This document shows, piece after piece, positions 19,618-51,920 of a DNA stretch of 64,000 nt. Each line of letters opens with the position of its first letter. The first letter of the stretch is position 1. Source of the stretch: Minisyncoccota bacterium (GTDB lineage Bacteria; Patescibacteriota; Minisyncoccia; UBA6257; GWB1-50-10); contig JAGVBB010000003.1 in the NCBI GenBank assembly GCA_020059915.1, positions 233,625-297,624 on the forward strand, given 5' to 3'. The notes below the pieces were generated by a model that was not told the origin of the DNA, did no database searches, and worked only from the letters and a program-made list of their open reading frames with translations. A program made the position numbers and the translations under genes.

Positions 19618-21294
19618 CTATTTTACCAAGTTCATCTTCCTTGAAAGCTGTCCGAATTTGGTCTGGATCATATAAATATATGTTCCAGATGAGATCCCTT
19701 CTCCATCAAAACGTATGGAGTGAACACCGCCGGAAAACTCTTGGTTTGTCAGCTGTTTTACTTCCCTACCAAGAATATCAAATATTGATATTCTTACCAA
19801 AGAATTTGCTGGTAAGGAGAACTGAATCAATGTACTTGGATTAAACGGATTTGGATAATTCTGCGCAAGTGAAAAATCACTTGGTACTTGATTATCCTCA
19901 ACTCCAGTAACTCCTACTGTCATAAAGTTTACAACCGAAGTATATTCAGAATAATTTGCTCCACTTTTACCACGCATTTTTAGATAATATGTGGTAGAAG
20001 GTGAAAGATTTGGAAGCGCATAAGGACTTGTTGAAATAATATATGTGTGTACATCGGCAGTAAATTCCGAGTTTTTTGCAATCATAATTTCATATTCCGA
20101 TGCGTTCCCAGTAAATGAGAGTACTGTTTGAATCGGATTGCCAGTACTATTATTCCCCGGTGTTCCTATAATTGGAACACTCAAAGTAACTTGTACTTTA
20201 ACTTTAAAGATATAAGTTTCACTCCAATCACTTTGAGGATTTTTAAATCTCCCGCGTAATTGGTAGTCCCCATCGGCTAATCCAGAAAATGTGTATGGTG
20301 ATATATTTGCAGATGGATTCTGCAGAACAGTTCCACTCATATTCATAAGCTGAAATTCAACCTCGCCACCAACCCAATTCAACGTAATTGAATTATCTGA
20401 TTCGCTCCTGCTATTAACAGTAAATATAGGAACTGATACAACCTGAGATGCGGTAGTAAAACTAAATGTTTCAGACCAATTATCACTCGACGTATCGTTG
20501 TTCCAACATCTTACTCTCCAGTCGTACTGCGTATTGTATGACAATGGCGCAGTAAGCGTTACAGAGGTGCTGGCGTTTTTTTGATCATAAATAATTGAAC
20601 CGTCCAATTTTTTCATAATCTGAAGCTGGTACAGAGTTGTGTTTGTAACACTCCCATAATCAAACCTCGGAGTAACACTCACATTTGTTGCACTATTTAT
20701 CGGTGCTGTAAGCGTTGAAACTCCTGGTTTCACTATTGTGCCACCACCATTACCATTACAGTTATCAATAAGCGTTTCTGTCACTCCATCAACAAGATAG
20801 ACCCCGTCAATGAATAAATTCCGTAACCCTGATTCATTTTGAACATATGAAAGATTTAGACGAATTTTATTAAAACTACCGTCTATTTCAGGAAATCTAA
20901 AACTCTTTCGATGAAATGCCAGACTTGAGCCGGTATTCTTTGATTCAACTTCAAGCGCAGAATTCATTACAACGTTATCACCATTCAATAATGTTACAGA
21001 AATTTGGACATCACCTAACGGATCGGGAATCATTATATTTGCAGATATCTTCGATCCTTTTGGAAACGTGACACTCTGTGATAATGCGACTTCCCATTTT
21101 GTATATCTATTTCCTGTCGCAACTGAGGTATTCATCCAAAACTTGAATGATTTTCCCTCCTGAGCGGTATCACTCAGTGCAACACCTTTGTCGGATAGAT
21201 TTTCATATCCGGTAAGCGTTGGTAGCGGTGACTGAGCAAAATTAAGAGTAGTGAATACTACAAAAAGTACTGCGAAAAGAACTATTCTTTTCAT
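19618..21294 (-). CDS. secreted Fn3-repeat protein with C-terminal T9SS-type (Por secretion tail-like) sorting domain
   Basis: Signal peptide and several Fn3-like repeats. The last ~80 aa, NYPNPFNPSTLIQFSLPANSLVRISIFDILGREVKQL...GTYIYMIQT, fit the Por_Secre_tail / T9SS CTD pattern. Confidence 0.6.
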   Translation of the reverse strand: MKRIVLFAVLFVVFTTLNFAQSPLPTLTGYENLSDKGVALSDTAQEGKSFKFWMNTSVATGNRYTKWEVALSQSVTFPKGSKISANIMIPDPLGDVQISVTLLNGDNVVMNSALEVESKNTGSSLAFHRKSFRFPEIDGSFNKIRLNLSYVQNESGLRNLFIDGVYLVDGVTETLIDNCNGNGGGTIVKPGVSTLTAPINSATNVSVTPRFDYGSVTNTTLYQLQIMKKLDGSIIYDQKNASTSVTLTAPLSYNTQYDWRVRCWNNDTSSDNWSETFSFTTASQVVSVPIFTVNSRSESDNSITLNWVGGEVEFQLMNMSGTVLQNPSANISPYTFSGLADGDYQLRGRFKNPQSDWSETYIFKVKVQVTLSVPIIGTPGNNSTGNPIQTVLSFTGNASEYEIMIAKNSEFTADVHTYIISTSPYALPNLSPSTTYYLKMRGKSGANYSEYTSVVNFMTVGVTGVEDNQVPSDFSLAQNYPNPFNPSTLIQFSLPANSLVRISIFDILGREVKQLTNQEFSGGVHSIRFDGEGISSGTYIYMIQTKFGQLSRKMNLVK

Positions 21295-34805: not shown

Positions 34806-35657
34806 TTAATTTTCTGGAGATAAAAGTAATGTTGCTCGTTCTGCGTGTATACCTTGTATTTCATCCCCAATACCTTGAACCTCTACAGCGTCTCCCACTT
34901 GAAAGTTTGAAATATCTGATGGTTCGTCAATAAATGGAACTGGAATCGTCACCAATGTTCCATTTTTATATGCCTCTGTCTCCTCTTTAAATTGAGTGTC
35001 ACTTTTTTTGCCTTGCTTTGAAAAAATGGTGTTTGAACTTATCTTTATTTGCACCCTTGTTCCATCACCTTTATCCACCGCAAATCTTGTATTATCATCT
35101 GCCTTCCAACCAACAACACCAACTACCTTTTTTGGTGCACCAATATTCGGAATATCAGAAAATTTTGGAGCAGAAGATGGATTATTAATAATGATCGAGG
35201 TCGCTAAGAATTCATTGTATTCCTCAACATTTTTATTAGCACGAATGGTCACAAAATCTCCAATAGTAATAGTATTACCCTCAACCCGTTCTTCTATAAA
35301 CGGTAATGGCGGTTCAGTTTTTGTATTATTAGTTTTTTGTGATTCCAAAAAGATCGCCTGTTCTTTTTCAAACAAAGAAATATCTTTTTGAATTTGTTTC
35401 TTAACAAGTGTTGTTGAATCAAATGTAACAGTTTTGAGTATTTTTTGGTCTTGTGAATTTCCCGCAACACCACGGAGTGTGATCGCATCAACAACAAGAA
35501 CATTTCCATTTTTTTGTTCAACTATTCCTGATATCACCACATTTCCAATATTACGAGGAGTATTCCCGGCAATATATGAAATGGCTATTGCAACCACAAT
35601 AAGAACAACTAAAGCAAGTATGGTGTATAATATTTTTTTCTTTTTTTCTTGTTCCAT
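34806..35657 (-). CDS. membrane-anchored extracellular protein, unknown function; last gene of the giant-protein operon
   Basis: N-terminal TM, 283 aa; starts 21 nt downstream of the 35679 giant gene stop. Confidence 0.5.
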   Translation of the reverse strand: MEQEKKKKILYTILALVVLIVVAIAISYIAGNTPRNIGNVVISGIVEQKNGNVLVVDAITLRGVAGNSQDQKILKTVTFDSTTLVKKQIQKDISLFEKEQAIFLESQKTNNTKTEPPLPFIEERVEGNTITIGDFVTIRANKNVEEYNEFLATSIIINNPSSAPKFSDIPNIGAPKKVVGVVGWKADDNTRFAVDKGDGTRVQIKISSNTIFSKQGKKSDTQFKEETEAYKNGTLVTIPVPFIDEPSDISNFQVGDAVEVQGIGDEIQGIHAERATLLLSPEN

Positions 35658-35678: not shown

Positions 35679-38600
35679 TTAATATGTTATTTTGACCATT
35701 CCATGACCAGAACGAACCCCTGCGGTATTTGTTTGGTTTGTTCCGGAATTATAACTTCCACCTCCACCGCCATATGTTGAGCTTCCGCTCCATGATGCCG
35801 AAGTTCCACCTCCAGAATAACCTCCCCCTGCTCCTGGTCCACCGAGCTGTCCACCACCACCGCCACCATATCCACCATAATTTTCTGTTGTGTAACAACT
35901 ATTTCCTGTTCCTCCTGCCCCACCATTTAAATAACTCTGTCCTCCATATGCGGTTGCGCAATGAGTTCCTCCATCCATTCCATTTGTACTAAATCCTCCT
36001 CCCGCTCCTCCTGCATAACTTTGGTTTGAACTACCACCTGATCCCGCAGACCCTCCAGTTCCAGTACCTGCACAACTAATCGTTACTCCAGAGGTTCCCG
36101 ACTGACCATTTCCCTCAGACGCTGTGCGCGTACATGATGTCCCATAACTTGTTGCTGGACCACCACCACCGCCACCTGCGATAATGAGTGGTACATTTCC
36201 TGTTTGTTTCACAACAAACGTTCCACCGCCACCACCATTTTCATTTCCGTGTGCTCCACCATTGCTACCTCCTTGTTGACCAACGAGAATTTTAATAACA
36301 TCTCCAGCAGTAAGAGATACTGTTCCCTTAACATATGCACCAAGTCCACCTGTTAAACTATTACTACCTGTACCACTTCCACCCTGTGCCCCCCACGCTT
36401 CAATAATATATGATCCCGTTGTCGAAGCAGTAAATGTTTGCAAACTTCCCGTTCTTCCCGTGGTAATATTATTAAATGTTACCGTTATTGGATTTGTTGG
36501 GGTTGCTGTTACCTCAGAACTCAATCCACTTTCCCCTGCTGGATTTACTGAAGAAACCTTATAGTAGTAAGCCATTACACTCAATCCAGAATCTACATAC
36601 GAAGTTGAGGTCACATTAGAGGTTAATAAAGAATATCCACTTCCCGATGTTGTGCTTCGATATACATTATATGAATATGCAAGCGCACAAGAATTTCCTG
36701 TTGGTGCAGTCCATGAAATAGTATTTGAAAGAGCACCAGGCGTTGCTGTTGCACCCGTTGGCGCACTAGGAGCAGAAAGTCCATTTGGACAAGATGCTGC
36801 GTAACAAACCAATTCTGTATTTGATCCAATATTTTGTGTCGATGTCGCCATACCCCACCCCGCAGGACAGGAAAGTGATTGATTTGCTCCTTTAGCACGC
36901 AATGTAAATGATTGAAACGGAGCATCGGTGCGATAACAAATCTGCTCGTTTACATCAACCCCATCTATAGTCACCGTACTTGTTGGTGCAGAACTCCATC
37001 CTGATGGGCAAGAAGGGGCGGGAGAAGAAATTATTTTATAGCAGGCACTATCATAGGTCGTTTGCGAGCTATATCTCTTTCGCGTGTAATTTTGGTTTGT
37101 ATATTTTGTATATCCTGTTGGACAGGTAATACTATTTGAAGCAGCATTTGCATTGTATACAAAAGTATCAGATACCCCAGAATTTGTATTATTTATACAT
37201 GCACCTGTATATGCCTGATATCCAGAAATTGGAGCATTATAATATACCGCAGAGGTATTACTCCAATTGGTAAATCCACTCGGACAACTCACTACTGAGG
37301 TTGGATTTCCCAATCCCGTATATGATTCCCAAATAAATGATGGAGGATTTCCTTTATAACACGCACCTGAATAAACCTGATCAATGCCTGCTGGGCTATA
37401 AACATACTGTCCTACCCATCGTGTATATCCTGTTGGGCAGGTCACGCTCGTTGCTCCCGAATATGATTTCCATGTAAATACATCATTTGTTGCACTTGCG
37501 TTATAACACGCTCCCGAATATGACCAATAATCATATGTATAGTCATATTGCGAACACGTAGGCTCATCAACACAATATTCATACCATGCTGGTCTCCATC
37601 GCGCATAACTGTTATCGTACCAGTTAGTAAGTCCTGTTGGGCAGGTTTGCGTACTAGCGGTATATGCACTCCAAGAAAATGACGGTAATGTCGTTCCCTT
37701 ATAACACACACCGTCATATTTGCTAGTACTATTGTCCGGATCTACATCCCACCATGTGTTAACCCATCGTGTATATCCTGTTGGGCAGGTCACACTTGAT
37801 GGTGATGGTGATCGCCACTTAAATAAATCGTTTGATGCTGATGTTGGATAACACGCACCTGTATATGCAACATATCCACTCTCACTTGAACTATAATATG
37901 CATTAGAACTCCACCACTTGGTATATCCCTCTGGACAAGTTATGTAGGTATCAGGACTATAATTGTTTACTAATTGCCAAGTAAATGATCTTGGGTCCGA
38001 GCTCCCCGATCGCAAATACATAACATTGTCACTTGCACCTAACGCCACCACCTGTGCGTTATATATCTGCCATGTTCCATTACCACTCGCATCCACTGTG
38101 AGAACATACCCCGGCGTTGCCGATGTCCCCAACTGGAATCCATTCATTTTTATTGTCCCATACACATCAAGTTTTGCTGTTGGGGTTGAGGTTCCAATAC
38201 CAACATTCCCCGTATTAATGGAATATAAATTTGAACCTGATGCATTCCAGAGTGAATATGCAGAAGAATCTGCATATGATTTTGTTGCAACATGTCCCAC
38301 CGCTGTTGGTGATCCAACAATGACAGCCCCATCAAACTGTCCCGCGCCAACAACATCAAGAGTATATGCGGGCGTTGTTGTTCCAATACCAATGTTCCCC
38401 GCATTGGTCATAGTCAATCGATATGCCGAAGTGTTGTTATTATAAAAATGCAAAGCACTTCCTGCAGAAACCAATTCCCATGATGATCCCGTTGAAAGCA
38501 AGCGAATGGAACCACTACTCCCCCCTGTTTCAAATGTCGCTAATACTCCCGATGGTGGTGCAAGATTATATAAATGAAATGGATATGTTGGATTGGTTGT

Positions 38601-39047
38601 ACCAATACCAACGTTTGTCCCGTTATTAAACAAAAGAGAGGTTGCAACCCAACTCGAACCACTATGACGAAGTGTTTGCCCCGATGTACCACTCGCTATT
38701 CCCCCACCAACCATTGAATCAACATAACTTTTTGTCACTGCGTGCGTTACTCCTGTTGGGGACCCAACAAACACCGGAGAAGAAAAATATCCCTTCCCTG
38801 TTACTTGCAATTTATACGACGGATTGGATGTATATATTCCAATATTTCCCGTGGAATTAATTACAAATAAATCATTTGATCCAAAGATAATATCATTTCC
38901 ACTTCGTTCATTTAATTTCAAAACCGCACCAGTGTTTTCAATTGAAGAAGTATTTTGATCAATAGTGATATATTGTGCGGACACAAACTCCCCCACAAAG
39001 AATGTGAGAATAATTATTATGAAGATGATAAATGATTTATATTTCAT
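35679..39047 (-). CDS. giant secreted modular surface protein 1 (tail-fibre-like repeats, two-Cys tandem repeats, Fn3, ALK/LTK-type glycine-rich domain)
   Basis: Signal peptide, N-terminal NIGIGTTTPAYTLDV / ATKSYADS repeats, about 9 repeats of V.CPTGYT.W...Y.GACY, an Fn3 (YNVYRSTTSGSGYSL), and a C-terminal WGAQGGSGTG...ILVGQQGG...GGGGGTFVV...IIAGGGGGG glycine-rich domain. Confidence 0.8.
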   Translation of the reverse strand: MKYKSFIIFIIIILTFFVGEFVSAQYITIDQNTSSIENTGAVLKLNERSGNDIIFGSNDLFVINSTGNIGIYTSNPSYKLQVTGKGYFSSPVFVGSPTGVTHAVTKSYVDSMVGGGIASGTSGQTLRHSGSSWVATSLLFNNGTNVGIGTTNPTYPFHLYNLAPPSGVLATFETGGSSGSIRLLSTGSSWELVSAGSALHFYNNNTSAYRLTMTNAGNIGIGTTTPAYTLDVVGAGQFDGAVIVGSPTAVGHVATKSYADSSAYSLWNASGSNLYSINTGNVGIGTSTPTAKLDVYGTIKMNGFQLGTSATPGYVLTVDASGNGTWQIYNAQVVALGASDNVMYLRSGSSDPRSFTWQLVNNYSPDTYITCPEGYTKWWSSNAYYSSSESGYVAYTGACYPTSASNDLFKWRSPSPSSVTCPTGYTRWVNTWWDVDPDNSTSKYDGVCYKGTTLPSFSWSAYTASTQTCPTGLTNWYDNSYARWRPAWYEYCVDEPTCSQYDYTYDYWSYSGACYNASATNDVFTWKSYSGATSVTCPTGYTRWVGQYVYSPAGIDQVYSGACYKGNPPSFIWESYTGLGNPTSVVSCPSGFTNWSNTSAVYYNAPISGYQAYTGACINNTNSGVSDTFVYNANAASNSITCPTGYTKYTNQNYTRKRYSSQTTYDSACYKIISSPAPSCPSGWSSAPTSTVTIDGVDVNEQICYRTDAPFQSFTLRAKGANQSLSCPAGWGMATSTQNIGSNTELVCYAASCPNGLSAPSAPTGATATPGALSNTISWTAPTGNSCALAYSYNVYRSTTSGSGYSLLTSNVTSTSYVDSGLSVMAYYYKVSSVNPAGESGLSSEVTATPTNPITVTFNNITTGRTGSLQTFTASTTGSYIIEAWGAQGGSGTGSNSLTGGLGAYVKGTVSLTAGDVIKILVGQQGGSNGGAHGNENGGGGGTFVVKQTGNVPLIIAGGGGGGPATSYGTSCTRTASEGNGQSGTSGVTISCAGTGTGGSAGSGGSSNQSYAGGAGGGFSTNGMDGGTHCATAYGGQSYLNGGAGGTGNSCYTTENYGGYGGGGGGQLGGPGAGGGYSGGGTSASWSGSSTYGGGGGSYNSGTNQTNTAGVRSGHGMVKITY
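36830..38000 (-). repeat. intragenic tandem array of ~135-nt units encoding the two-Cys repeat (CPTGYTxW...GACY)
   Basis: Recurring near-identical DNA words such as ggtatatcctgttgggcaggt at 37425, 37780 and others. Confidence 0.7.
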
Positions 39048-39050
39048 AGT

Positions 39051-42000
39051 TTATTTTATCCACAGCCGTCCATATCCTCTTGACGATGCTGAACCACATC
39101 CATTTACTGGATACGAATCATATCCTGTATATGCCTGATATGGATATTGATAGTGTGGACCATTACATATACCACTTGGATTTCTTCCTCCAACTGCTGG
39201 ACTGTTCCCTGTATACCCCGTACCAACTCCAGAACAGTAATTATCTCCACAAGCAGCTAAACAATCTGGATTTGTTGGATAACTTGCATAGTTGGTCCAA
39301 CTTACCCACCATCCACGTTGCGTTGTATCTCTATCGTATGAGTTCCAAGTCCAGTTTGTACGATCATGGAATGTGGTTGCGTTATATGGCGAACAATAAA
39401 ATCTAAATATTCCCAAACTTCCCGAGGCGGTTCGAATTTGATTTATAACAGTATCAGAAAACTTCCCCTTATCATCTTGCGTCCATGTTGATTTTGTACT
39501 CCACCCACTCTGTTCTGTTGTTTGTCTATGATTTGCATTTGCTGAATCAATTCCTGCAACAAGTGTCCAACCCCCTCCATCGGTGGTCATATCACAATAT
39601 GCTCGAAATGCATCACTTGTTGAACCACCATTTGGATCTATCCAATAAGTACCATCAGTCTTTGATGGGAATGCAGTCTTAATCACCTTGCAAGAAATTC
39701 CAGCAAAAGTCTGTGAGGATCCATCTGGGTCTGAAAGCGGAACAGCACTCACCTCACTACTTTGTGCACTTTCACCACCACTGTTTACTGAAGAAATTTT
39801 GTAATAATATGTCGGATAAGTTCCACTCCCTAAAATCTTAAATTCTATTTCTGCAATTCCACCATTGTTATATCCAGTACCAGAGACCGCCACAAGTTTG
39901 TAATAACGATATGCAGTAGTGTTTGCACTTAAGTCACCAAAATAACTTGGTTGTGCAACTCCACCCGGCGCAGTATATACCGCAGAAATATCAGTCCACG
40001 TTGAATTATTTGTTGATCCTCGCCACTGATAATTTCCCGTTTGTGCACCACCGCCACCCCACGTATATCGAGCCTCTGTAATAGTAATTGCAGAACCAAA
40101 ATCAAATGTTATTGATTGTCCAGAAAATGAAGTTGTTTGGAGATATGCGATAGTCCCCGTATTTCCATCAATCATGTTTGTATTTGGATACCCAGAATAA
40201 CTCCATAAATTATCTGAGAGAAGTGTAATAAGTGATGTTCTATTTCCAATGCTTTGTGTTTGAGTATATGTTGATGTTGCGCTTGTGGTGATTGAAGTAT
40301 CTGAATACGTTGTACCTGCAATACCACTCGTAACAAGTGAGAATCCAGATCCAGAGGTTAAACTTCTATATATATTATATGTTTCTGGTTGCGAGCATAC
40401 TCCTCCACCACTTGGTGCTGTCCAAGAAAGATTTATACTTTGACTGGCTCCGGTAGCGGATGGACTAGTTGGAACATCCGGTGCAGTCATCCCCTCCGAG
40501 CAAGCAAAATAGCAGGCAAGTTCCGTGTTCCCTGCAACGTTGGTTGCGGACATTGCTGGAGCCCACGCAGCACTTGGACAAGAAATAGATTGCGAAGATC
40601 CTTTCTTTGTTATCTGCATTGTTGTCACCGCCGAATCAGTTTTGTAACAAATTTTCTCTTTTACATCATATCCATTGGTAAGTACTGTCTGACAAGTTGT
40701 TTCACTCCATCCAGATGGGCAGGATGGACACACTGTTGCATCAAACGTCTTGTAACAGGTTGCGTCCCATGCTTGGACACTAGATCCTCGTTTGTATGCA
40801 AATTGTCCGCTTTTATATTTTGTATATCCTGTTGGGCAAGTTACCGTGTCCGACGCCACCATCGTCTCAATATTAAATGCATCAGCACCAGTTGCAGTGT
40901 TACTTATACATGCTGCAGTATATGCATCATAACTATTTCCAGTTCTCCATTTTGCATTTGCATCATACCACTTGGTATATCCTGTTGGGCAGGTATTATT
41001 TGCCATATTCCCACCAGTGTATGCATCCCAAATAAATGATGTCGGATTCCCTTTATAACAAACTCCAGAATAATACTGGTTATTTCCTGGACCATATACA
41101 ATGTCACTTGGATACCACTTAGTGTATCCTGTTGGGCAGGTAAGAGAGGTTGGAGAGGTTGATTTCCATGGAAAATAGTCATTTGTTGCACTTGTGTTGT
41201 AACACGCTCCAACATAGCTATAGTATCCAGATCCAGAAGAATACCATTGTGCATTTGAATCAAACCATTTTGTATATCCCGTTGGGCAGGTAAGAGAGGT
41301 TGGCGTTCCAAGTCCTGTGTATGATTCCCAATTAAACGCTGTTGTTGGAGATCCTTTGTAACAAACGCCACTATAGTATGCCTGCGAAGAATAAATACCA
41401 TAACCATAATACGAGGTATTAACCCACCTCGTATATCCTGTTGGACATACTACCGAATTTGGAGATGTCATTGTCTTCCATGAAAAAATATCAGTTGTTG
41501 TATCCGCGTTATAACACGCCCCCTCATACGACACATTTCCCGAAAGGTCCGCATACCAATATGCATAACTCTGATCAAACCATTTTGTATATCCCGTTGG
41601 GCAGGTTACTGACGTGGGACTATTTGTTTCCCATGTAAATGAATTCATAATAAGTGTTATTGGGTTTCTTAATTTCATAACACTCGTTCCATATGCATTC
41701 CCAACATTTGCAATTGACTGCCATGTACCAACACCACTTGCATTTGCAATTAAAATATTTCCTGCAGTTGCGGAGGTACCCAACTGAAATGAGGACATTT
41801 TCACCGTTCCCATAACATCAAGTTTTGCCCCTGGTGAATTTGTTCCAATGCCAATGTTTCCTGATGGAACGGTATATGTGTTAGTACTTGATGACACCCA
41901 CATTGAAACTGCAAGTGCATCAACATATGCCTTGCTCGCCGCATGCCCCGCCGCGGTTGTGGTACTTATAAGAACAGGAGAAGAAAAATTTCCCGTTCCC

Positions 42001-42713
42001 GCAACATGGAGTAAAGACGCAGGAGATTGTGTTCCAATACCAACATTTCCTGCATTTGTTATTGTCGTACGATATTGTGATGTATTGTCATTATAAAATT
42101 GCAGACCGGATCCCGTCGCACCAATTTGCCACGATGATCCTGTTGATCCAATTTTTATAAATGAAGCGGATGTTCCTGTTTGAAAACGAGAAAGCACGGC
42201 AGATGTTCCGCTATATACATGCAGTGGGGCTGTTGGGTTTGTTGTTCCAACACCAATATTTGTTCCATTGTTGTAAAGTGTTGAATCACCAAACCATCCA
42301 GATCCAGTATTTCTTAATGTCTGCCCAGATGTTCCTGAACCAACTCCTCCTGCAATAGTAAAGTCTGCATAGGATTTTGTTGAAATATCAGAAGCGATTT
42401 GCGGTTCTCCAATGGTGAGTGGATTTACAAAATATCCAGCACCCTGCACATGCAATGGGTATTGAGGATTTGTTGTGTTTATACCAATCTTATCCCCTGA
42501 AGTATTTATATATATGATTCCGTCTCCTACTGAAATATCATATGCACTCCGTGCATTCAAATACAATGGTGCATACCACGATTCAACAGAATTACTATCA
42601 ATGGTAACGCTTTGTGCATACACTGATGAAAACGAAAACACAAAACACAACATAAATATGCTCAAAAATAAAATTCTATATGTACTTATATGCGTTTGTA
42701 TGTTCATTTTCAT
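39051..42713 (-). CDS. giant secreted modular surface protein 2 (tail-fibre-like repeats, two-Cys tandem repeats, Fn3, discoidin-like domain, C-terminal fibrinogen-related domain)
   Basis: Likely start MKMNIQTH... (signal peptide); the ORF track start at 42752 overlaps the upstream gene. The C-terminus DGTYWIDPNGGSTSDAFRAYCDMTTDGGGWTLV is a strong FReD signature. The mid-region ITFDFGSAITITEARY...YQWRGSTNNSTWTDIS is discoidin/F5-8C-like. Confidence 0.8.
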   Translation of the reverse strand: MKMNIQTHISTYRILFLSIFMLCFVFSFSSVYAQSVTIDSNSVESWYAPLYLNARSAYDISVGDGIIYINTSGDKIGINTTNPQYPLHVQGAGYFVNPLTIGEPQIASDISTKSYADFTIAGGVGSGTSGQTLRNTGSGWFGDSTLYNNGTNIGVGTTNPTAPLHVYSGTSAVLSRFQTGTSASFIKIGSTGSSWQIGATGSGLQFYNDNTSQYRTTITNAGNVGIGTQSPASLLHVAGTGNFSSPVLISTTTAAGHAASKAYVDALAVSMWVSSSTNTYTVPSGNIGIGTNSPGAKLDVMGTVKMSSFQLGTSATAGNILIANASGVGTWQSIANVGNAYGTSVMKLRNPITLIMNSFTWETNSPTSVTCPTGYTKWFDQSYAYWYADLSGNVSYEGACYNADTTTDIFSWKTMTSPNSVVCPTGYTRWVNTSYYGYGIYSSQAYYSGVCYKGSPTTAFNWESYTGLGTPTSLTCPTGYTKWFDSNAQWYSSGSGYYSYVGACYNTSATNDYFPWKSTSPTSLTCPTGYTKWYPSDIVYGPGNNQYYSGVCYKGNPTSFIWDAYTGGNMANNTCPTGYTKWYDANAKWRTGNSYDAYTAACISNTATGADAFNIETMVASDTVTCPTGYTKYKSGQFAYKRGSSVQAWDATCYKTFDATVCPSCPSGWSETTCQTVLTNGYDVKEKICYKTDSAVTTMQITKKGSSQSISCPSAAWAPAMSATNVAGNTELACYFACSEGMTAPDVPTSPSATGASQSINLSWTAPSGGGVCSQPETYNIYRSLTSGSGFSLVTSGIAGTTYSDTSITTSATSTYTQTQSIGNRTSLITLLSDNLWSYSGYPNTNMIDGNTGTIAYLQTTSFSGQSITFDFGSAITITEARYTWGGGGAQTGNYQWRGSTNNSTWTDISAVYTAPGGVAQPSYFGDLSANTTAYRYYKLVAVSGTGYNNGGIAEIEFKILGSGTYPTYYYKISSVNSGGESAQSSEVSAVPLSDPDGSSQTFAGISCKVIKTAFPSKTDGTYWIDPNGGSTSDAFRAYCDMTTDGGGWTLVAGIDSANANHRQTTEQSGWSTKSTWTQDDKGKFSDTVINQIRTASGSLGIFRFYCSPYNATTFHDRTNWTWNSYDRDTTQRGWWVSWTNYASYPTNPDCLAACGDNYCSGVGTGYTGNSPAVGGRNPSGICNGPHYQYPYQAYTGYDSYPVNGCGSASSRGYGRLWIK
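40500..41630 (-). repeat. intragenic tandem array encoding two-Cys repeats (paralogous to 36830-38000 and 44820-45900)
   Basis: ggtatatcctgttgggcaggt / ggtatatcccgttgggcaggt words at about 40975, 41125, 41275, 41440 and 41590. Confidence 0.7.
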
Positions 42714-42723
42714 AGTTTTTATA

Positions 42724-45700
42724 TTATCTTGTACATGTAATGTTGACCGCATAGTCAGTTGAGTTCTGATTATTACACTCGCTCAAATATCCAGAAGGAG
42801 GTGTTGGTGCAGCAGCACATTGTGTTGGCTGGGAACCAAAACTCCAATTTCCTGATTGTCCATCATACAATGTTACATTTGAAGAGGTACTCCAAGCACA
42901 ATCAATTGCTGTTCCAGAACCAATCGCATATCCATTTGGTTGTGAACCCCAAACACCATTTCCAATACTATGATATGCGGCATAAGAGACGCCGGAATTT
43001 GCTACTGTACATGAAGAATACCCAAGCTGTTGTCTGATCTGCGTCAATACATTGGAATCCCACTCACTATTCATCATACGAGCAATAAGTTTGTGTTGTG
43101 GATTTGACCAACTCGCAAGACGCGTGAATTGTGCATCCACACAAATTTCCTGGTCTCCATTATCAGTGACGCTACTACAATATATTCCATACTCACAAGG
43201 ATTTGATCCATATAAGAGTGGTGGAATTGAATTATATCCTTGCTTGAACAAAGTCAACGCAGGCGCTGCGGGTATTGCACCAAATTCTGCCGTCTGTGTA
43301 CTTTCTCCAAATCCGTTAATCGCAGAAATTTTATAATAGTATGTTGTACCATTGGTGACTCCTGTATCTAAATAATAATTTCCTGTTGATGTTGCATAAA
43401 GTGAAAAACCACTTCCCGACGTTAAGCTTCTAAAAATTTTGAAATAGCTTGGAATTGCTGTACAACTAATACCTCTACTCCATGAAAGAGCAACACTATT
43501 ATTTCCTGCGGTTGATGTTGCGGAAGATGGTACAGCTGGAGCCTGAGAAACTGCACTCGTACATTTTGTAACAACAACCTGTCCCGCACCCGATCTATTC
43601 CCCGCAATATTTGATTGATTTATTCCATCATTATATGATCCACCGCCACCTCCACCATATGTACTTCCCCAACTTCCACCTGCTCCACCACCAGAATATC
43701 CTCCTCCTCCACCGGCAGTAAGTCCACCTGCTCCACCACCGCCAAATCCACCAACATTGCCACCCCATCCGGACCATACGCTTGCTCCATTATCTCCACC
43801 ATATCCTCCATTTAAGAATTTTGAACCACCATAGTCATACCACGCAGAACTTCCACCTCCATCAACATTAGTAGTTCCATCTGTTCTCCATCCCGCTCCT
43901 CCTCCAGAATAATTTGCACGACCGCCACCCATTCCATTTGTTCCTCCAGCACCCCCACCAGATGATTGCCCAGCAGTTCCATTAATAGTTGTCTGTCCAC
44001 CACTTGCTGACCCACCCCCATTTGTACCAGGCGCGCCCCCACCACCACCGGCAACAATAATCGGCAAATTATTTGAATCAACTACAAAGGTTCCCCCTCC
44101 CCCTCCATTTCCTCCATTATATTGGACACCATTGTTTGCCGGGCTACCTTGTTGTCCAACAAGTATTGAAATTACCTCACCCATTCTTAAATACACATCG
44201 CCCTGCATTTTTGCTCCAAAACCACCCGTGTAACTCATTGAACCCCCCTGTGCTCCATACGCAGCTATTGTATAAACCCCAGTTTCAGGAACAGTCCATT
44301 TCTGTGTTCCTGTTGCAACATCAAAAAATGATGAGTTCTCATCCCAGGAAGTTGAGTATGCAGAACGACATGCAGATATCGTTGGACCAGTTCTTCCAGT
44401 TTGTGAACAATTAGTAAATGTATGTGTAGTAAATGAATATAAAACATTCGGTGTCGTGACACTAAATTCATTTGAGGTAGATCCTTCTCCGGCTATATTC
44501 GTACCGGAAACCTTATAATAGTAAGTGGTATTTTGTGTTGTTGTCGCGTCGGTAAAAGTAGTCGCTTCAACTCCTGAGGCAATAAGGGAATACCCACTCC
44601 CTGAGGTAAGGCTTCTATATATATTATAAGTATCTGTTGCAGTACATTCAGTTGCACTTGGTGCTGTCCACGAAAGAGCAACTGAAATACCAGAAAGGCT
44701 TCCCGTAAGTGAGGTTGGTGTTAGTGGTAAAGAAAAACTTGAGCAGGCAACATAACAGGCACGCTCTGTATTTCCATTCACATTTGCTGTTGTACCCGCA
44801 CTTGAAAGTCCTGCGGGACAAGAAATTGATTGGTTTGATCCCTTCTTTTGCACTGTAATTGTTTGGATTGGTCCGCCTTGCTTATAACAAACACGTTCTC
44901 CATAATCGCCAAGTGATCCAGAAACAGTGTTACATGATCCAGCCGTCCATCCAGTTGGACACGACTGACAAGTTGCGGCAGGAATTTTATAACACGCACT
45001 ACTGTACGCTGCTTGACCTGAACCGCGGTAGGTGTAATACGAAGAATTCCCCTGCCATTTTGTATATCCGGATGGACAAGCAACAGCATCGGATCCCGAT
45101 GTGGAAAAATATGGAAATGCATCTGCTGCTGTTGCTGAAGAGTTTACGCAGTATCCATTATATGATTGATATGAACTACTATAGGTATAATATTTTGCAT
45201 ATGTTGTGTCATACCAATTTGTGTATCCAGATGGACAGGTCACAGTAGTTGGTGCGTATCCAGTATAAATCTCCCATGGAAGAGAGGATGGTGATCCCTT
45301 GTAGCAAACTCCAGTGTAATAAGTGACCGACCCTGGACCATATGCATAATTTGTTGGGTACCATTTTGTATATCCAGATGGACAGGTCACTGATGCTGGC
45401 GAGGTAGATTTCCATTTGAATACATCCGTGCTTGCAGATGCGTTATAGCACGACCCCGTATAGTTATAATAACCACCCGTTGATGAATACCATTGTGCAT
45501 TTGCATGATACCAAGCGGTATATCCACTTGGACAAGAAATAAAGGTGGTTGGATCTCCACTTCCCGTGTATGTCTCCCACGTAAACGATGATGGTGACCC
45601 CTTGTAGCAAGCACCATTATACCCATTATAAGTAGAATATATTCCCTTTCCTGGATATGATGCATTTGTCCAAGTAGTGTATCCAGATGGACAGGTCACT

Positions 45701-46923
45701 GATGCCGGAGATGAGTATGCTTTCCAAGTGAAGACATCGTCTATTAAGGAGTTTTGATAACAAGTACCAAAATAAGAAGGGTTTCCACTTTCGTCTCCAT
45801 ACCAGTAGGCGTTACCGTGTGACCACAATGAGTACCCCGTAGGACAGGTAAAATAAGTTGAGATAGCACTTGTACGACTTTCAAAAGCAAATGTTTTGGG
45901 ATCTCCGATTGACGAATGTAAAGTTAAAATGGCACTTCCTGGTTTTGAACCACTGGTACCTGGAAGAACTTGCCACGTTCCGACGCCACTTGCATCCGTA
46001 GTAAGAGCATAACCCGCCGTTGTTGAAGTTCCAATTTGAATTCCTGTTGCGCGAACTTTTCCAACTACCTCAAGTTTTGTTGTTGGGTTAGTAATACCAA
46101 TTCCGACGTTCCCAGAGTTCCCAGAGTATAAAGATGTTGATGTTGCGGTCCACACAGAACCGACCAACGAATCAACATATCCTTTTGTCGCAGCGTTATT
46201 TGCAGCAGTTGGTGTTCCTACAGAAAGTGTAGAAAAACTTCCCGTGCCGGCCACATCAAGCAACGACGATGGCGTTGTTGTACCAATCCCAATATTTCCA
46301 GAGTTTGCCATCGTCATCCGATACTGTAGATTGTTCCTATTATAAAATTGGAGCCCACTTGCTGTCGTCCCAAAATTCCAAGAAGCATCAGACCCAATTA
46401 AGTTTAATGTTCCCGCCGTACTTCCACTTTGGAAATAGGTAACAATATTGCCAGATGGTGCAGAATTATATACATCAAATTTTATTGTTGGACTTATCCC
46501 TATACCAACCGCACCACCATTATTGATAATTAAAGAAGATGCAACCCATCCAGATCCATTATTATGCAATGTCTGGTTTGCACTTCCCGATCCAACACCT
46601 CCACCGAGAATGGAATCAACATATCCTTTTGTGGCAGCATTGCTCGCAGCAGTTGGAGATCCCGCACCAGTGCTTGTGGAAAAAACAGCACTCCCAACCA
46701 CGTGTAACGGATATGTTGGTACAAGGGTTCCAATCCCTATATATCCATTTCCACGAGAAATAAACAAATCACCGTTTCCGATGTTTATGTTATATCCACT
46801 CGTCTTATTGAATCCAAGTCCCGATGCATCACTTTGAATATCGGTGTCGCCAAAAAAAATACTTGCACTTACTACCAATGGAAGTAGACATAAACCTATG
46901 GTTAGTATGAGAAAGCGTTTCAT
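42724..46923 (-). CDS. giant secreted modular surface protein 3 (tail-fibre-like repeats, two-Cys tandem repeats, Fn3, ALK/LTK-type glycine-rich domain, second Fn3, Cys-rich C-terminal domain)
   Basis: Signal peptide MKRFLILTIGLCLLPLVVSAS. Same module order as protein 1, plus an extra C-terminal ~190-aa domain with 8 Cys. First gene of a four-gene minus-strand operon. Confidence 0.8.
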   Translation of the reverse strand: MKRFLILTIGLCLLPLVVSASIFFGDTDIQSDASGLGFNKTSGYNINIGNGDLFISRGNGYIGIGTLVPTYPLHVVGSAVFSTSTGAGSPTAASNAATKGYVDSILGGGVGSGSANQTLHNNGSGWVASSLIINNGGAVGIGISPTIKFDVYNSAPSGNIVTYFQSGSTAGTLNLIGSDASWNFGTTASGLQFYNRNNLQYRMTMANSGNIGIGTTTPSSLLDVAGTGSFSTLSVGTPTAANNAATKGYVDSLVGSVWTATSTSLYSGNSGNVGIGITNPTTKLEVVGKVRATGIQIGTSTTAGYALTTDASGVGTWQVLPGTSGSKPGSAILTLHSSIGDPKTFAFESRTSAISTYFTCPTGYSLWSHGNAYWYGDESGNPSYFGTCYQNSLIDDVFTWKAYSSPASVTCPSGYTTWTNASYPGKGIYSTYNGYNGACYKGSPSSFTWETYTGSGDPTTFISCPSGYTAWYHANAQWYSSTGGYYNYTGSCYNASASTDVFKWKSTSPASVTCPSGYTKWYPTNYAYGPGSVTYYTGVCYKGSPSSLPWEIYTGYAPTTVTCPSGYTNWYDTTYAKYYTYSSSYQSYNGYCVNSSATAADAFPYFSTSGSDAVACPSGYTKWQGNSSYYTYRGSGQAAYSSACYKIPAATCQSCPTGWTAGSCNTVSGSLGDYGERVCYKQGGPIQTITVQKKGSNQSISCPAGLSSAGTTANVNGNTERACYVACSSFSLPLTPTSLTGSLSGISVALSWTAPSATECTATDTYNIYRSLTSGSGYSLIASGVEATTFTDATTTQNTTYYYKVSGTNIAGEGSTSNEFSVTTPNVLYSFTTHTFTNCSQTGRTGPTISACRSAYSTSWDENSSFFDVATGTQKWTVPETGVYTIAAYGAQGGSMSYTGGFGAKMQGDVYLRMGEVISILVGQQGSPANNGVQYNGGNGGGGGTFVVDSNNLPIIVAGGGGGAPGTNGGGSASGGQTTINGTAGQSSGGGAGGTNGMGGGRANYSGGGAGWRTDGTTNVDGGGSSAWYDYGGSKFLNGGYGGDNGASVWSGWGGNVGGFGGGGAGGLTAGGGGGYSGGGAGGSWGSTYGGGGGGSYNDGINQSNIAGNRSGAGQVVVTKCTSAVSQAPAVPSSATSTAGNNSVALSWSRGISCTAIPSYFKIFRSLTSGSGFSLYATSTGNYYLDTGVTNGTTYYYKISAINGFGESTQTAEFGAIPAAPALTLFKQGYNSIPPLLYGSNPCEYGIYCSSVTDNGDQEICVDAQFTRLASWSNPQHKLIARMMNSEWDSNVLTQIRQQLGYSSCTVANSGVSYAAYHSIGNGVWGSQPNGYAIGSGTAIDCAWSTSSNVTLYDGQSGNWSFGSQPTQCAAAPTPPSGYLSECNNQNSTDYAVNITCTR
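44820..45900 (-). repeat. intragenic tandem array encoding two-Cys repeats
   Basis: Repeated tgtatatccagatggacaggtcac-type words. Confidence 0.7.
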
Positions 46924-48190: not shown

Positions 48191-50641
48191 TTATTTACAT
48201 AAATAGGTGCCACCAATACTTCCAGAGATATTTCCACTATAGTTCACAAAAGCAGTACATTCTACTGCGGAAGTGAAAACACGAAAGTCTGTTCCAATTT
48301 GACAAACTGTTGTCTGCCCCACATCACCACATGGAAAAATTTGAGAACCGGCCGTACAACCAACATTGGAACCAGAGTAACAAGTTGATCCACCTGGCAT
48401 TCGATACCAAGCATAAAAAAGACTTCCAGGAGCATATTGTGTTCCAGCAGACGAAGTTATAGCTCCATCACAATTATAATCAAAACTTCCATCACCACGG
48501 TTTGTAGAGAATGAAGAAGCTTGTCCAGGTCGCGCGTTTGCATTTGAATCATAACAGTCAGAATTATTTACAACATATCCAGCTGGTGGTGTTGGACTTG
48601 CTGAAGTAGTCGAAACTGAAGGATTTCCATATCCATCGCCATCTACATCACGATAGTAGGTATATGAGGGGGTGACGGTAAGCGTTGTGTTATATGTTTG
48701 TGATTCTGAACTTCCAGTAAACCCAATATTACTCACAGACATAGTAACAGAAAGATTGTATGTTCCCGGTGTTGCGCCCGCAGGAATAATAAAATCAACT
48801 GGGTGTGAGGCAGTGCCCCCCGCGGCTACATAATAACTACTCGGTCCACAATTCGGAAAGTTGTAACACGTCGTTCCCGAAGGAAGTCCACTAATTGAAG
48901 AGACAGTAAGTGGATATGAAACTGGATCACCACTCAAATCAGAACGTGTATGTGTAAACCCACCACTAACAGTTCCACCAACCGGAGCACTTCCCCCTGA
49001 AAATGAACCGGAAATACAATTTCCATAATTCGCACCCGCGTTCCCATCATTACAGTCTCTTGAATCGGTTGTGTATCCAGATGGAGCGGAATTTCCATAA
49101 CAAACACTTGTTGCCGCATCGGAATACGGATAACTTAATGTTGCCTTTCCACCATATCCATCACCATCAGCGTCCGGATAAAATGTTCCATTTCTCCACT
49201 TAGAAGCATCGGACGACGCACAATCTGAATTGTTATTTGAACACCAACCAGTTGTTATACAATCCCATGCTCCTCCATCATACCCAATACAAAATGGTTG
49301 AAGACTTCCAGCTCCATATCCATCATGATCCGAATCTAAATATTTTTGAACAATTCGCCAAACACCAGCGGACGTATCATCACAATCTGTCCCTAAAGAT
49401 GGATAGGTTGTGTGATATGGGCACGAAGTTGCGCAATATGACGAACCACTCCCAACAGTATATCCATCGGTATCATTATCTGTATAGCAGGTTCTATATG
49501 AAGAAACTGAATAATTATAATCATCGCAATCACTTCCCGGAGAAGCAGAAACACCAGGATTTGAAGAGCCTCCACAAAGATATCCATAATTACTCCCATA
49601 CACTCCATCTCCATCATTATCTAAATACCCTCCCCAATCTTGATAAGTCCAATAATCACTATCATTACAATCGCTTCCTGGACTGGTATTGCCAGCTGGG
49701 AGTGACGTACCAGAACAAATTGAACTTTGACTCGGACTATTATACCCATCCCCATCATTATCTGCATATCCACTCAAATATTGCCATACAGTTGCCGACC
49801 CATCATTACAATCAATATTAAACGAAGTAAGTGCTGACTTTCTTACTCTTCCTCCAGCACTACTCGTATATTGAGTGCTATTTGATGGGTATCCATCACT
49901 GTCTGCATCGCTCATATATAAATCACCCTGTTGGATACTTCCTCCAGATCCCAACACAATTTTTCCTCCGTTGCTCAACGTGATTGACTTCCCCGCATTC
50001 CAAACAAACGTACCATTTACTGTGAGTGTCGCATTTGCATCAATAGCAACATTTCCGTTATCAACCCCATCAACACCACTGATGGTACACGACGCACCAG
50101 CATTGTTCGTCGTCATACTCCAATTTCCTGAAAGGGCTATACCGCACGCATCTGACCATGCAATATCAAAAAAATCTGAATTACCCGCATTGTCTTCTGC
50201 AACAAAACGAGTGGTATATCGCGTGTCATGTGTATCTTCAACAATCCAACTTCCCCTCCAAATATTTGATCCCTCATTATTAAGCGCTACCTCTTGTGTT
50301 TTTGTATCAGTAGTAATAACTGCTTTTACAGACTTAATACCAGACTCTGCAGAAACTTCAATCATAAACGTCTGCATGTCCCCCAAATGAACATCCGGAG
50401 GATCTATCTCCCCTTTTATAAATTTGATAGCATTCTCATCTGCAGATGCAACACTAAATTCATATATACCCTGTGGCAATGTCCACTCTTTTCCATCTTT
50501 ATTCACCAAAATGCGATCTTTTTGTTCAATAGCACGCTTTCCAAAAAAAGAAGGGAGAGAAAGAAATGCAATCACAAAAACCGCGAAAAAGAACACGATG
50601 AGTCCTGCAATATGCGGTTTTTCCTGCACGAATTTTTTCAT
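48191..50641 (-). CDS. membrane-anchored surface protein with MopE-like Cys/Asp repeats (DxDxDGYG calcium-binding-type motifs)
   Basis: 816 aa with an N-terminal TM and about 8 repeats of C.D.D....PG..E.CDG.DNDGDGY (DADSDGYPS, DNDGDGYNS, DVDGDGYGNPS). Confidence 0.65.
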   Translation of the reverse strand: MKKFVQEKPHIAGLIVFFFAVFVIAFLSLPSFFGKRAIEQKDRILVNKDGKEWTLPQGIYEFSVASADENAIKFIKGEIDPPDVHLGDMQTFMIEVSAESGIKSVKAVITTDTKTQEVALNNEGSNIWRGSWIVEDTHDTRYTTRFVAEDNAGNSDFFDIAWSDACGIALSGNWSMTTNNAGASCTISGVDGVDNGNVAIDANATLTVNGTFVWNAGKSITLSNGGKIVLGSGGSIQQGDLYMSDADSDGYPSNSTQYTSSAGGRVRKSALTSFNIDCNDGSATVWQYLSGYADNDGDGYNSPSQSSICSGTSLPAGNTSPGSDCNDSDYWTYQDWGGYLDNDGDGVYGSNYGYLCGGSSNPGVSASPGSDCDDYNYSVSSYRTCYTDNDTDGYTVGSGSSYCATSCPYHTTYPSLGTDCDDTSAGVWRIVQKYLDSDHDGYGAGSLQPFCIGYDGGAWDCITTGWCSNNNSDCASSDASKWRNGTFYPDADGDGYGGKATLSYPYSDAATSVCYGNSAPSGYTTDSRDCNDGNAGANYGNCISGSFSGGSAPVGGTVSGGFTHTRSDLSGDPVSYPLTVSSISGLPSGTTCYNFPNCGPSSYYVAAGGTASHPVDFIIPAGATPGTYNLSVTMSVSNIGFTGSSESQTYNTTLTVTPSYTYYRDVDGDGYGNPSVSTTSASPTPPAGYVVNNSDCYDSNANARPGQASSFSTNRGDGSFDYNCDGAITSSAGTQYAPGSLFYAWYRMPGGSTCYSGSNVGCTAGSQIFPCGDVGQTTVCQIGTDFRVFTSAVECTAFVNYSGNISGSIGGTYLCK

Positions 50642-50647
50642 GCGTGT

Positions 50648-51889
50648 TTATTTATTATTTTTGTAATATGTATCCAGATTCAAACCCTCCCAATCGCTAC
50701 TTGAATAATTAGTCCAATCTTTTGCATCAAATCGTGGAGCAGTTAGACGATAACTTATTTCTAATTTTGAATTTTGAATTTCTAATTTTGAATTAGGAAT
50801 ACCGAATATCACAATCTTTTTGTTTTGTTCGTCTTTTTGATACCATACTTTGCCATCAAAGTTTGGAGTAAGAAGCACAGACACATGCTTCAATCCATTT
50901 TTTTCTACATCAATAGTATGTGCAAATAACCACACATCACTTCCTTTTTCTTTATTGTTTAAATCAATAGTATATGAATATAAATTCCCATTCAAAGTTG
51001 CAACAAGTGTAGCAACGTCACTGAGCTCTTCTTTCACACCACCAACCATTCCAGGGTTGTATGTTGCATATCGCTTCCCTTCTATGGTGTAAACTGGATC
51101 AAATGTCACCCCATCAATCTTGTTTGCAATAATATCTGCCGCCGCTGTTCCCTCATCTGCATAGATTTGTCCAGCAACTTGAAGTTTATATGTTGGATTC
51201 GTTATACCAATACCTACCCTTCCAGAACTATCTACATTTAAACGCCATGCACCAGTATGCCAAAAGCCAAATGCAGAGGTCCCAGTGTTATCTAAGGATC
51301 CTATAAACCTGTCTCCACTCCCGGAAGAGTCTGTAATCCAAATTCCAGCACTTCCATTAGAACCCTGTCTTATTCTAATTCTATCTGCAATATCTAATTT
51401 ATATCCAGGAGTTACTCCAATACCAACACTTCCATCTCCCGCAAAAACAACTGGATATGATGTATTCCCAAACATTCTAACTCCATTCCCTCCAGCAAAT
51501 TGCATTTCAATAAAACCATCGGTTCTGTTTATTTGGCTGGCATTCATGGTAAAGGCGCCACCGGCACCAACCTGAAGAACACCCGCAATAGTCGTGGTTC
51601 CTACAACATATAATGGTGAAGTTGGATTTGTTGTTCCAATACCAACATAGGTTGCCGCTTGTGGATAAATCTTTGTACTTGTTGCAGTCCATCCCCCACC
51701 CCCAATCGCTGATGCGCTATCAAGCGTTGAGCTGTCTGGAAATCGAATAACTTTTCCTGGCGAAAGAATAATATCTTTATCAATAGTAAGTGAGTTCTGT
51801 GCATATACAACGGCAACACCACTCAAGATCACGACACCCAAAAATAAGAGCGCTCCCGAAAACAATTTTTTGCGCAAAAAATGTTTCAT
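50648..51889 (-). CDS. secreted tail-fibre-like repeat protein with a C-terminal domain shared with 55488..59504
   Basis: Likely start MKHFLRKKLF (signal peptide); the ORF track start 51913 uses GTG. Contains VGIGTTNPTSPLYVVG, VGIGVTPGYKLDI and VGIGITNPTYKLQVAG repeats. C-terminal DPVYTIEGKRYATYNPGMVGGVKEE...EKGSDVWLF matches the C-terminus of the 1338-aa protein. Confidence 0.7.
   Translation of the reverse strand: MKHFLRKKLFSGALLFLGVVILSGVAVVYAQNSLTIDKDIILSPGKVIRFPDSSTLDSASAIGGGGWTATSTKIYPQAATYVGIGTTNPTSPLYVVGTTTIAGVLQVGAGGAFTMNASQINRTDGFIEMQFAGGNGVRMFGNTSYPVVFAGDGSVGIGVTPGYKLDIADRIRIRQGSNGSAGIWITDSSGSGDRFIGSLDNTGTSAFGFWHTGAWRLNVDSSGRVGIGITNPTYKLQVAGQIYADEGTAAADIIANKIDGVTFDPVYTIEGKRYATYNPGMVGGVKEELSDVATLVATLNGNLYSYTIDLNNKEKGSDVWLFAHTIDVEKNGLKHVSVLLTPNFDGKVWYQKDEQNKKIVIFGIPNSKLEIQNSKLEISYRLTAPRFDAKDWTNYSSSDWEGLNLDTYYKNNK
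50758..50799. repeat. 21-nt tandem duplication inside the CDS (encodes NSKLEIQ NSKLEIS) with similarity to repeat-element flanks
   Basis: tttctaattttgaatt ttgaa tttctaattttgaatt. Confidence 0.5.
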
Positions 51890-51920
51890 ATCTATAGAAT
51901 TAGTATAACACACTGCAATA

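Follow-up and report, generated by a model that had tools for sequence, protein, structure and literature searches.

Two of the three big open reading frames (ORFs) that lie in tandem, head to tail, on the minus strand of the stretch analysed here (64,000 nucleotides of contig JAGVBB010000003.1 from a Minisyncoccota bacterium; hereafter the window) encode proteins with a domain that is homologous to the ligand-binding region of the animal receptors ALK and LTK. The three genes stand in the ORF list as g3, g2 and g1, and the domain is present in g1 and g3. The homology is solid, and the domain was predicted with high confidence to adopt the ALK-type fold, in which a tumour necrosis factor (TNF)-like sandwich is intertwined with a glycine-rich subdomain. 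The unit concerned is the entire TNF-like plus glycine-rich (TG) domain and not the glycine-rich part alone. In g1 it comprises aa 855-1122 (35682..36485, minus strand; 268 aa, 32% Gly) and forms the C-terminal end of the protein, and the complete domain of g3 comprises aa 828-1121 (43561..44442, minus strand; 294 aa, 31% Gly) and includes an N-terminal disulfide-helix segment, FTNCSQTGRTGPTISACRSAY. The glycine-rich region of ALK and LTK has long been seen as an oddity of two animal receptors, and the polyglycine-II (PGII) lattice is a rare architecture. The occurrence of a complete TG domain under purifying selection on putative fibre proteins of a bacterium of the Candidate Phyla Radiation (CPR) provides a microbial setting for asking what this fold binds.

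An earlier sequence-only reading of the window had proposed a folded domain of the ALK/LTK type, belonging to the bacterial branch of PF12810, in both proteins, and this identification is correct. The glycine pattern that was quoted for it is found in g1 as WGAQGGSGTGSNSLTGGLGAYVKGTVSLTAGDVIKILVGQQGGSNGGAHGNENGGGGGTFVVKQTGNVPLIIAGGGGGG and in g3 as YGAQGGSMSYTGGFGAKMQGDVYLRMGEVISILVGQQG...GGGGGTFVVDSNNLPIIVAGGGGG. Its limits for g1 (35682-36500) were essentially exact, and those for g3 (43530-44310, corresponding to aa 872-1132) located the domain but missed its first 44 residues, which are the most ALK-like ones.

When the g3 domain was searched with phmmer against all PDB sequences, ALK (7LS0, E=3.5e-11), LTK (E=4.4e-9) and SCD-2 of C. 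elegans (E=1.2e-7) were the sole significant matches. The strongest stretch of the g3-ALK match is the non-glycine N-terminal 100 residues, where FTNCSQTGRTGPTISACRSAY is aligned to ALK and where the bias amounts to 0.4 bits; the similarity therefore goes beyond composition. The TG copies of g1 and g3 share about 50% identity, both between themselves and with a large family, and a profile built from 34 sequences (g3, g1 and 32 relatives) matched human ALK with E=2.9e-40, LTK with E=8.6e-36 and SCD-2 with E=2.3e-17. The match to ALK spans profile positions 40-330 and chain residues 29-340, i.e. the complete domain, up to its end, where GHGxVxI is aligned to GHGEVNI of ALK. In the alignment of the 34 sequences 25 columns are invariant and about 47 are conserved to at least 90%, non-glycine residues included. 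For ALK, 14 PGII helices have been defined by experiment and listed (PMC13243192), and in a MAFFT alignment with ALK 676-987 a glycine-rich counterpart was present in both g3 and g1 at all 14 of them.

For the structural comparison AlphaFold2 models of the excised TG domains were built without templates. The models were confident and their top matches were solely TG structures of the ALK/LTK type. The g3 model reached a predicted local distance difference test score (pLDDT) of 90.9 and a predicted template modelling score (pTM) of 0.92, with 227 of 294 residues above a pLDDT of 90, and the g1 model a pLDDT of 88.6 and a pTM of 0.91. With Foldseek against the PDB the top 21 matches of each model were all structures of the ALK, LTK or SCD-2 TG domain, the best being 7NX1 for g3 (E=2.1e-15; template modelling (TM) scores of 0.68-0.74, with 7NX4 at 0.74) and 7NX4 for g1 (E=1.4e-11, TM 0.67). 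The first match outside ALK, LTK and SCD-2 followed at E ~0.01, about 10 orders of magnitude weaker. In the g3 model the FTNCSQTGRTGPTISACRSAY segment forms a helix at residues 22-29. The glycine-rich parts are mostly without helix or strand according to DSSP, yet their pLDDT is mostly above 90, and they must superpose on ALK, since a TM of about 0.7 over the whole domain requires it. From these models we infer a PGII geometry of the glycine-rich segments.

The two copies differ at their start. In g1 (36400-36485) a 26-aa in-frame deletion has removed the disulfide-helix segment, which corresponds to PTLANCQSAYSAATWTSSSSLFSVTS in the g1 ortholog o1, and the first Cys in the conserved FTNCG...C..Y stretch has gone as well; the disulfide-helix segment is present in o1 (72% identical) and in g3. 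Outside the deletion, the TG domains of g1 and o1 share 73% identity, and the g1 model lacks one helix and one strand and is still confident. The Planctomycetota relative P0001 is likewise without the conserved motif and both Cys at that position of the alignment, so the family tolerates loss of the motif. Comparison with the orthologs gave ratios of nonsynonymous to synonymous substitution (dN/dS) of 0.11 for the TG domain of g3 and 0.20 for that of g1, which are rough values because dS is saturated. Between orthologs, positions aligned to PGII helices are 88% identical and other positions 79%. Both TG copies are thus under purifying selection, and at these dN/dS values the domains are functional.

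The TG family is already catalogued and very large, and g1 and g3 add members to it but no new kind of domain. A profile search of 1.84 billion representative proteins yielded 14,735 clusters (50% identity) at E<=0.001, of which 8,863 remained when the limit was set to E<=1e-10 and 4,471 when it was set to E<=1e-30. Those with the highest scores are giants that reach 7,819 aa and in which 2-10 stretches were matched, and some of the giants with multiple copies additionally bear Peptidase_S74 (a tail-fibre chaperone domain), Flg_new or Gly_rich_2; partner domains across the family include fn3, Por_Secre_tail and Peptidase_S74. At least 2,842 TG relatives, many with a precomputed PF12810 assignment, were retrieved by database search. 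Among the matches listed for bacterial reference genomes are Bacteroidota, Proteobacteria (including Micavibrio and Rickettsiales), Myxococcota, Planctomycetota, Zixibacteria and Marinimicrobia, and among those listed for archaeal reference genomes are Woesearchaeota, Nanohalarchaeota, Iainarchaeota, Thermoplasmata and Methanosarcinales. Phages carry the domain as well: phrog_22713 was matched by the TG domains of g1 (E=3.4e-40) and g3 (E=1.9e-38), and carriers include the Synechococcus phages S-SZBM1 and S-CREM1 and the Actinomycetia phage DSL-LC01, in which the genes adjoin structural or collagen-like genes. Moreover, 52 viral fold matches were found in BFVD (best E=3.3e-20), with names that include virion structural, minor tail and tail collar protein. 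A literature search for bacterial PF12810 or TG domains found no specific account of them.

Most of the close TG relatives (P0003-P0086 of alignment A1) are secreted single-domain proteins of about 330 aa. These share a conserved A-L-P-T-F-Q-G-V motif directly after the signal peptide, which is possibly a processing or sorting signal.

In the sequence-only reading the fusion of the domain to fibre-like repeats and Fn3 had been called unusual. For the TG family as a whole this was overstated, as fusion to fibre-like giant proteins is not unusual in it; what stands is the rarity of the pairing with this particular stalk, since in a search with the stalk only 4 of 125 relatives bear a TG domain, namely g1, g3, P0128 and P0129.

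The stalk is the part that the three genes have in common. All three are annotated as 'hypothetical protein', and by exact look-up they lie, like UvrB and PEP synthase of the window, on a 303,818-bp contig of a metagenome-assembled genome of Candidatus Parcubacteria: g1 (35679..39047, minus strand) encodes 1122 aa (RJQ26060.1), g2 (39051..42752, minus strand) 1233 aa (RJQ26061.1) and g3 (42724..46923, minus strand) 1399 aa (RJQ26062.1). They are paralogs with 40-45% identity over about the first 800 residues, and each consists of a Sec-type signal peptide, as read from the sequence, about 300 aa of GNVGIGTTxP repeats, two-Cys repeats and an Fn3-like domain that scores below the Pfam cut-off. 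In g1 the order is signal peptide, tail-fibre-like repeats with GNVGIGTTxPxxxLxV motifs (38028..38975, minus strand), two-Cys repeats, Fn3 and the C-terminal TG domain. In the stalk of g1 (36813..37940, minus strand) a repeat of about 50 aa that contains two Cys (CPTGYTKW...GACY) occurs six times in tandem before smaller Cys modules follow, and the Fn3-like domain of g1 (aa ~761-850; 36498..36767, minus strand) directly precedes the TG domain (Pfam fn3 E=0.0033, sub-cut-off) and is 40% identical to aa 1121-1226 of g3, the stretch with the second Fn3 of that protein. In g3 the signal peptide and the tail-fibre-like repeats are followed by seven two-Cys repeats (44749-45891, minus strand), Fn3, TG, a second Fn3-like domain (aa 1138-1211; 43291..43512, minus strand; fn3 E=0.00012 in the whole protein and E=0.0011 when excised) and a Cys-rich C-terminal domain of 175 aa (aa 1225-1399; 42727..43251, minus strand) without a family match in Pfam. 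The paralog g2 has the stalk, with its two-Cys repeats at ~40518-41700 (minus strand), and no TG domain. Neither the six or seven two-Cys repeats of about 50 aa nor the smaller CPSGW modules had a significant Pfam match, and the two-Cys repeat appears to be an undescribed stalk repeat of the disulfide type. The tail-fibre-like repeat region recurs in hundreds of proteins from Patescibacteria, Bacteroidota and DPANN archaea, whose C-termini vary; such stalk relatives are named 'tail fiber domain-containing protein' and carry PF13884, PF01391 or PF05658 at their ends. Pfam found no PF13884 (Peptidase_S74) in g1-g3, though several relatives of the N-terminal stalk have it, and neither Pfam nor NCBIfam identified a kinase, EGF, MAM or LDLa domain in the three proteins.

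Beyond the stalk the three proteins diverge: g1 ends in Fn3 and TG, g2 in an Fn3 that holds an inserted discoidin domain, followed by a fibrinogen-like domain, and g3 in Fn3, TG, Fn3 and the Cys-rich domain. The two end modules of g2, both on the minus strand, are a fibrinogen-like C-terminal domain (39054-39785; NCBIfam GGGWT_bact E=6.6e-20, Pfam COLFI E=6.3e-14, Fibrinogen_C E=1.1e-5) and an F5/8 type C (discoidin) domain inside the Fn3 (39960-40178; Pfam F5_F8_type_C_2 E=2.1e-6). In the syntenic locus of a second assembly (L003, 61 kb) the gene order is kept and the three giant proteins are 67-74% identical over their shared parts, and the ends differ here as well. Residues 939-1168 of o2, the counterpart of g2 (6438-9944 in L003), align with aa 1169-1399 of g3 at 71% identity, so that o2 has a Cys-rich domain of the g3 type where g2 has the fibrinogen-like one, and o3, the ortholog of g3, ends in another, different Cys-rich domain. 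The g3-type C-terminus on o2, together with the deviating end of o3, shows that these paralogous genes have exchanged their end modules, whereas the stalk is conserved. The discoidin and fibrinogen-like domains of g2 are the second and third 'animal-looking' extracellular binding modules on this stalk family, beside TG.

As called, g2 and g1 are separated by 3 nt and g3 and g2 overlap by 29 nt (the start of g2 lies at 42710-42752). The NCBI model of g2, with 1233 aa, opens 12-14 residues ahead of a typical signal peptide (MKMNIQTH...), and the JGI call for this gene is a 1190-aa product; the true start of g2 is probably Met13 or Met15.

By analogy with phage tail fibres and the animal receptors, g1 and g3 are probably secreted cell-surface fibre proteins of which the TG domain is the distal binding head. 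In such a fibre the N-terminus would be the cell-proximal end and the strands of the TNF-like beta-sandwich would extend into a rigid lattice of about 14 PGII helices. The glycine lattice would provide stiffness and a compact scaffold, and a ligand, carried by a host cell, a partner cell or a polymer, might be contacted by the variable loops that join the PGII helices and by the TNF-like face. The three paralogs could then present three binding specificities on one stalk design. A binding role is suggested by the TG domain of animals, which binds a ligand, namely the ALKAL ligands. [quoted passage not shown]

Several observations weigh against this assignment. The adhesin role of prokaryotic TG proteins would be carried over by analogy. 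Since Fn3 and the 175-aa domain follow the internal TG domain of g3, the latter does not form a tip in the strict sense. A search of the fibre proteins for an LPxTG anchor found none, and their signal peptides look cleavable. The dN/dS comparison with the orthologs showed no diversifying selection on the TG head, of the kind that receptor-binding heads often display, and between orthologs TG is at least as conserved as the stalk (82% identity, dN/dS 0.11). The family assignment was not reproduced by the Pfam profile itself, PF12810 (ALK_LTK_GRD, gathering score 24.5 bits): no match was obtained on whole g1-g3 with Pfam, nor any with NCBIfam, the excised domain of g1 scored 16.7 bits (E=0.0078, sub-cut-off), and the excised domain of g3 gave no match, so that the hmmsearch put forward in the sequence-only reading came out near-negative. 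Nevertheless, of 34 relatives with an identity of 45-54% to g3, 19 pass PF12810 (best E=2.9e-14) and relatives with multiple copies reach up to 59 bits with it; therefore the profile is insensitive for this sub-branch, and the homology is not absent. In substance, neither disorder nor a lack of PF12810 similarity was found.

The sub-cut-off PF12810 scores, the glycine contents of 31-32% and a HMMER bias of 42-53 bits over the glycine-rich half of the direct ALK match could also be taken to mean that the glycine stretches are disordered low-complexity linkers with a chance resemblance to ALK. This explanation is effectively refuted by the position of the best ALK match in the non-glycine part with its bias of 0.4 bits, by invariant columns that include non-glycine residues across 34 relatives, by a fold match confined to ALK/LTK with pLDDT above 90 for 227 of 294 residues of g3, and by purifying selection on the domain. 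The main rival to a binding head is a TG domain that would act as folding or oligomerisation nucleus, or as rigid structural cap, of the fibre and not as a ligand-binding site, comparable to the C-terminal trimerisation domains of collagens or to TNF/C1q-like and fibre-knob heads that register three chains. Fibrillar collagen C-propeptides nucleate trimers in collagens, and it is to this propeptide (COLFI) that the equivalent position of g2 was matched; the strong conservation of TG between orthologs, where a hypervariable head is not seen, would fit such a cap as well. According to the structures of 2021, on the other hand, the TG domain of ALK and LTK is reportedly monomeric until ligand binds. 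[quoted passage not shown] A cap is also hard to reconcile with the internal position of TG in g3 and with the many family members that are single-domain proteins of about 330 aa and have no fibre to nucleate, and we consider this rival unlikely. It is barely credible that, in the manner of the snow-flea antifreeze protein, a flat PGII face binds ice or a mineral surface instead of a biological ligand: the faces of PGII bundles are indeed flat and rigid, and there are PGII proteins with an antifreeze function (PMC13243192), but no antifreeze-protein similarity appeared in the phmmer-PDB or Foldseek searches, and the partner modules (Fn3, discoidin, fibrinogen-like) and the relatives among phage fibres point to biological ligands.

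The resemblance of the N-terminal repeats to proteins named 'tail fiber domain-containing', together with the matches of TG to phrog_22713 and to phage proteins, raises the question of whether the three giant genes are phage tail-fibre genes of a prophage or of a phage-derived particle. This was rejected as highly improbable. No phage gene or integrase was recognised among the ORFs of the window that were scanned, and the window contains no tRNA gene; the immediate neighbours are housekeeping genes (MOFRL, PEP synthase, 2-hydroxyacid dehydrogenase, UvrB), the same gene order is found in the second assembly, and all three proteins have signal peptides of the Sec type, which virion proteins lack. 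The flanks as a whole encode UvrA, UvrB, UvrC, SecD, Tgt, QueA, PEP synthase, a glycerate kinase-type MOFRL protein, 2-hydroxyacid dehydrogenase and DUF5671. The locus of g1-g3 is chromosomal, belongs to a CPR bacterium and is not a prophage.

With g1 and g3 read as fibre proteins bearing a TG head, the three-gene array is a candidate host-attachment set, in which one stalk design would be combined with exchangeable ends and with modules of the binding type (TG, discoidin, fibrinogen-like). To our knowledge, the mechanisms by which CPR bacteria recognise their hosts are largely unknown, and a literature search on CPR surface adhesins found solely work on type IV pili. A more far-reaching interpretation would make the TG domain of animal ALK and LTK an offshoot of a prokaryotic and phage fibre-head family, would see in the domain a host-recognition cassette that ultra-small episymbionts (CPR bacteria, DPANN archaea) shuffle among their fibre genes, and would explain the identity of about 35% between a Parcubacteria protein and human ALK by horizontal transfer of an adhesin head from microbes when the animal receptor arose; we regard this as doubtful. 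As we judge it, no concept is changed by the finding, and what it adds to a catalogued family, through its CPR setting and the exchanged end modules, would be modest.

Directly 3' of g1 lies a 283-aa ORF (34806-35657, minus strand) whose product has a hydrophobic helix at its N-terminus, lacks Cys and matched no family. The ORF is kept at the same position in the second assembly with 49% identity and could serve the fibre genes in an accessory or anchoring function. Upstream of the array, further putative surface proteins without a Pfam match are encoded on the minus strand at 48191-50641, 50648-51913 and 55488-59504; the proteins of 421 aa and 1338 aa share tail-fibre-like GxVGIGT repeats, and the 816-aa protein has 28 Cys and repeats of the DNDGDGY type. 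This region looks like a surface-protein island. Two Fn3-rich proteins are encoded at 19618-21294 and 17097-19445 (minus strand). The one of 558 aa has a C-terminal Por_Secre_tail (PF18962, E=9.1e-10), a type IX secretion sorting signal that is typical of Bacteroidota and unexpected in a Parcubacteria genome.

Among the known systems, the PGII-sandwich tip adhesin gp38 from Salmonella phage S16 (6F45) shows how a PGII lattice can act as a rigid scaffold that presents variable receptor-binding loops (PMC9608196, PMC13243192). Its likeness to g1 and g3 is one of mode of action and not of family membership, as gp38 has no TNF-like subdomain and neither phmmer against the PDB nor Foldseek found a sequence or fold match between it and the domains of g1 and g3; for these phage adhesins with glycine-rich tips the resemblance is in mode of action alone. 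The layout of Pam3 gp24 (7YPX, 7YFW) is closer, with a helical shaft and, at the far end of the fibre, a TNF-like sandwich that extends into a glycine-rich lattice, and 7YPX was the first match of the g1 model outside the ALK group, though a weak one (E=0.0096, probability 0.99). The relation is far more distant than that to ALK, with a TM of about 0.3, 16-18% identity and a smaller lattice of 12 glycine-rich motifs. In addition, gp24 is a virion protein that needs a dedicated chaperone, gp25, and no gp25-like gene was recognised beside g1 and g3.

Other phage homologs belong to the same domain family as g1 and g3, with a tblastn identity of 37-45% over the first 130 residues. They have been named automatically as 'receptor protein-tyrosine kinase' or 'ALK tyrosine kinase receptor', those of the Caulobacter phages Ccr34 and CcrBL10 included, and they are without the Parcubacteria stalk and, like g1 and g3, uncharacterised in function. 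With the TG structures of ALK, LTK and SCD-2 (7LS0, 7N00, 7NX4, 7NX1, 7LIR) the domains of g1 and g3 share about 35% identity in aligned columns at a TM of 0.67-0.74, and the order of motifs is common to them and ALK: FTxCGxxGxxGPT...C..Y, YGAxGG, ILVGQQG, GGGGGTxV, PLIxAGGGG, GGFGGGG, GGGGGYxGG and GHGxVxI. The Cys-loop insert of about 28 aa that follows VGQQGED in ALK is absent from g1 and g3, as is the receptor context of ALK and LTK with its MAM and LDLa domains, EGF-like module, transmembrane helix and kinase, the host protein being a putative bacterial fibre. The proteins g1-g3 are not receptors of the ALK family, and the ligand is certainly not an ALKAL cytokine; it is the domain alone that they have in common with the animal receptors.

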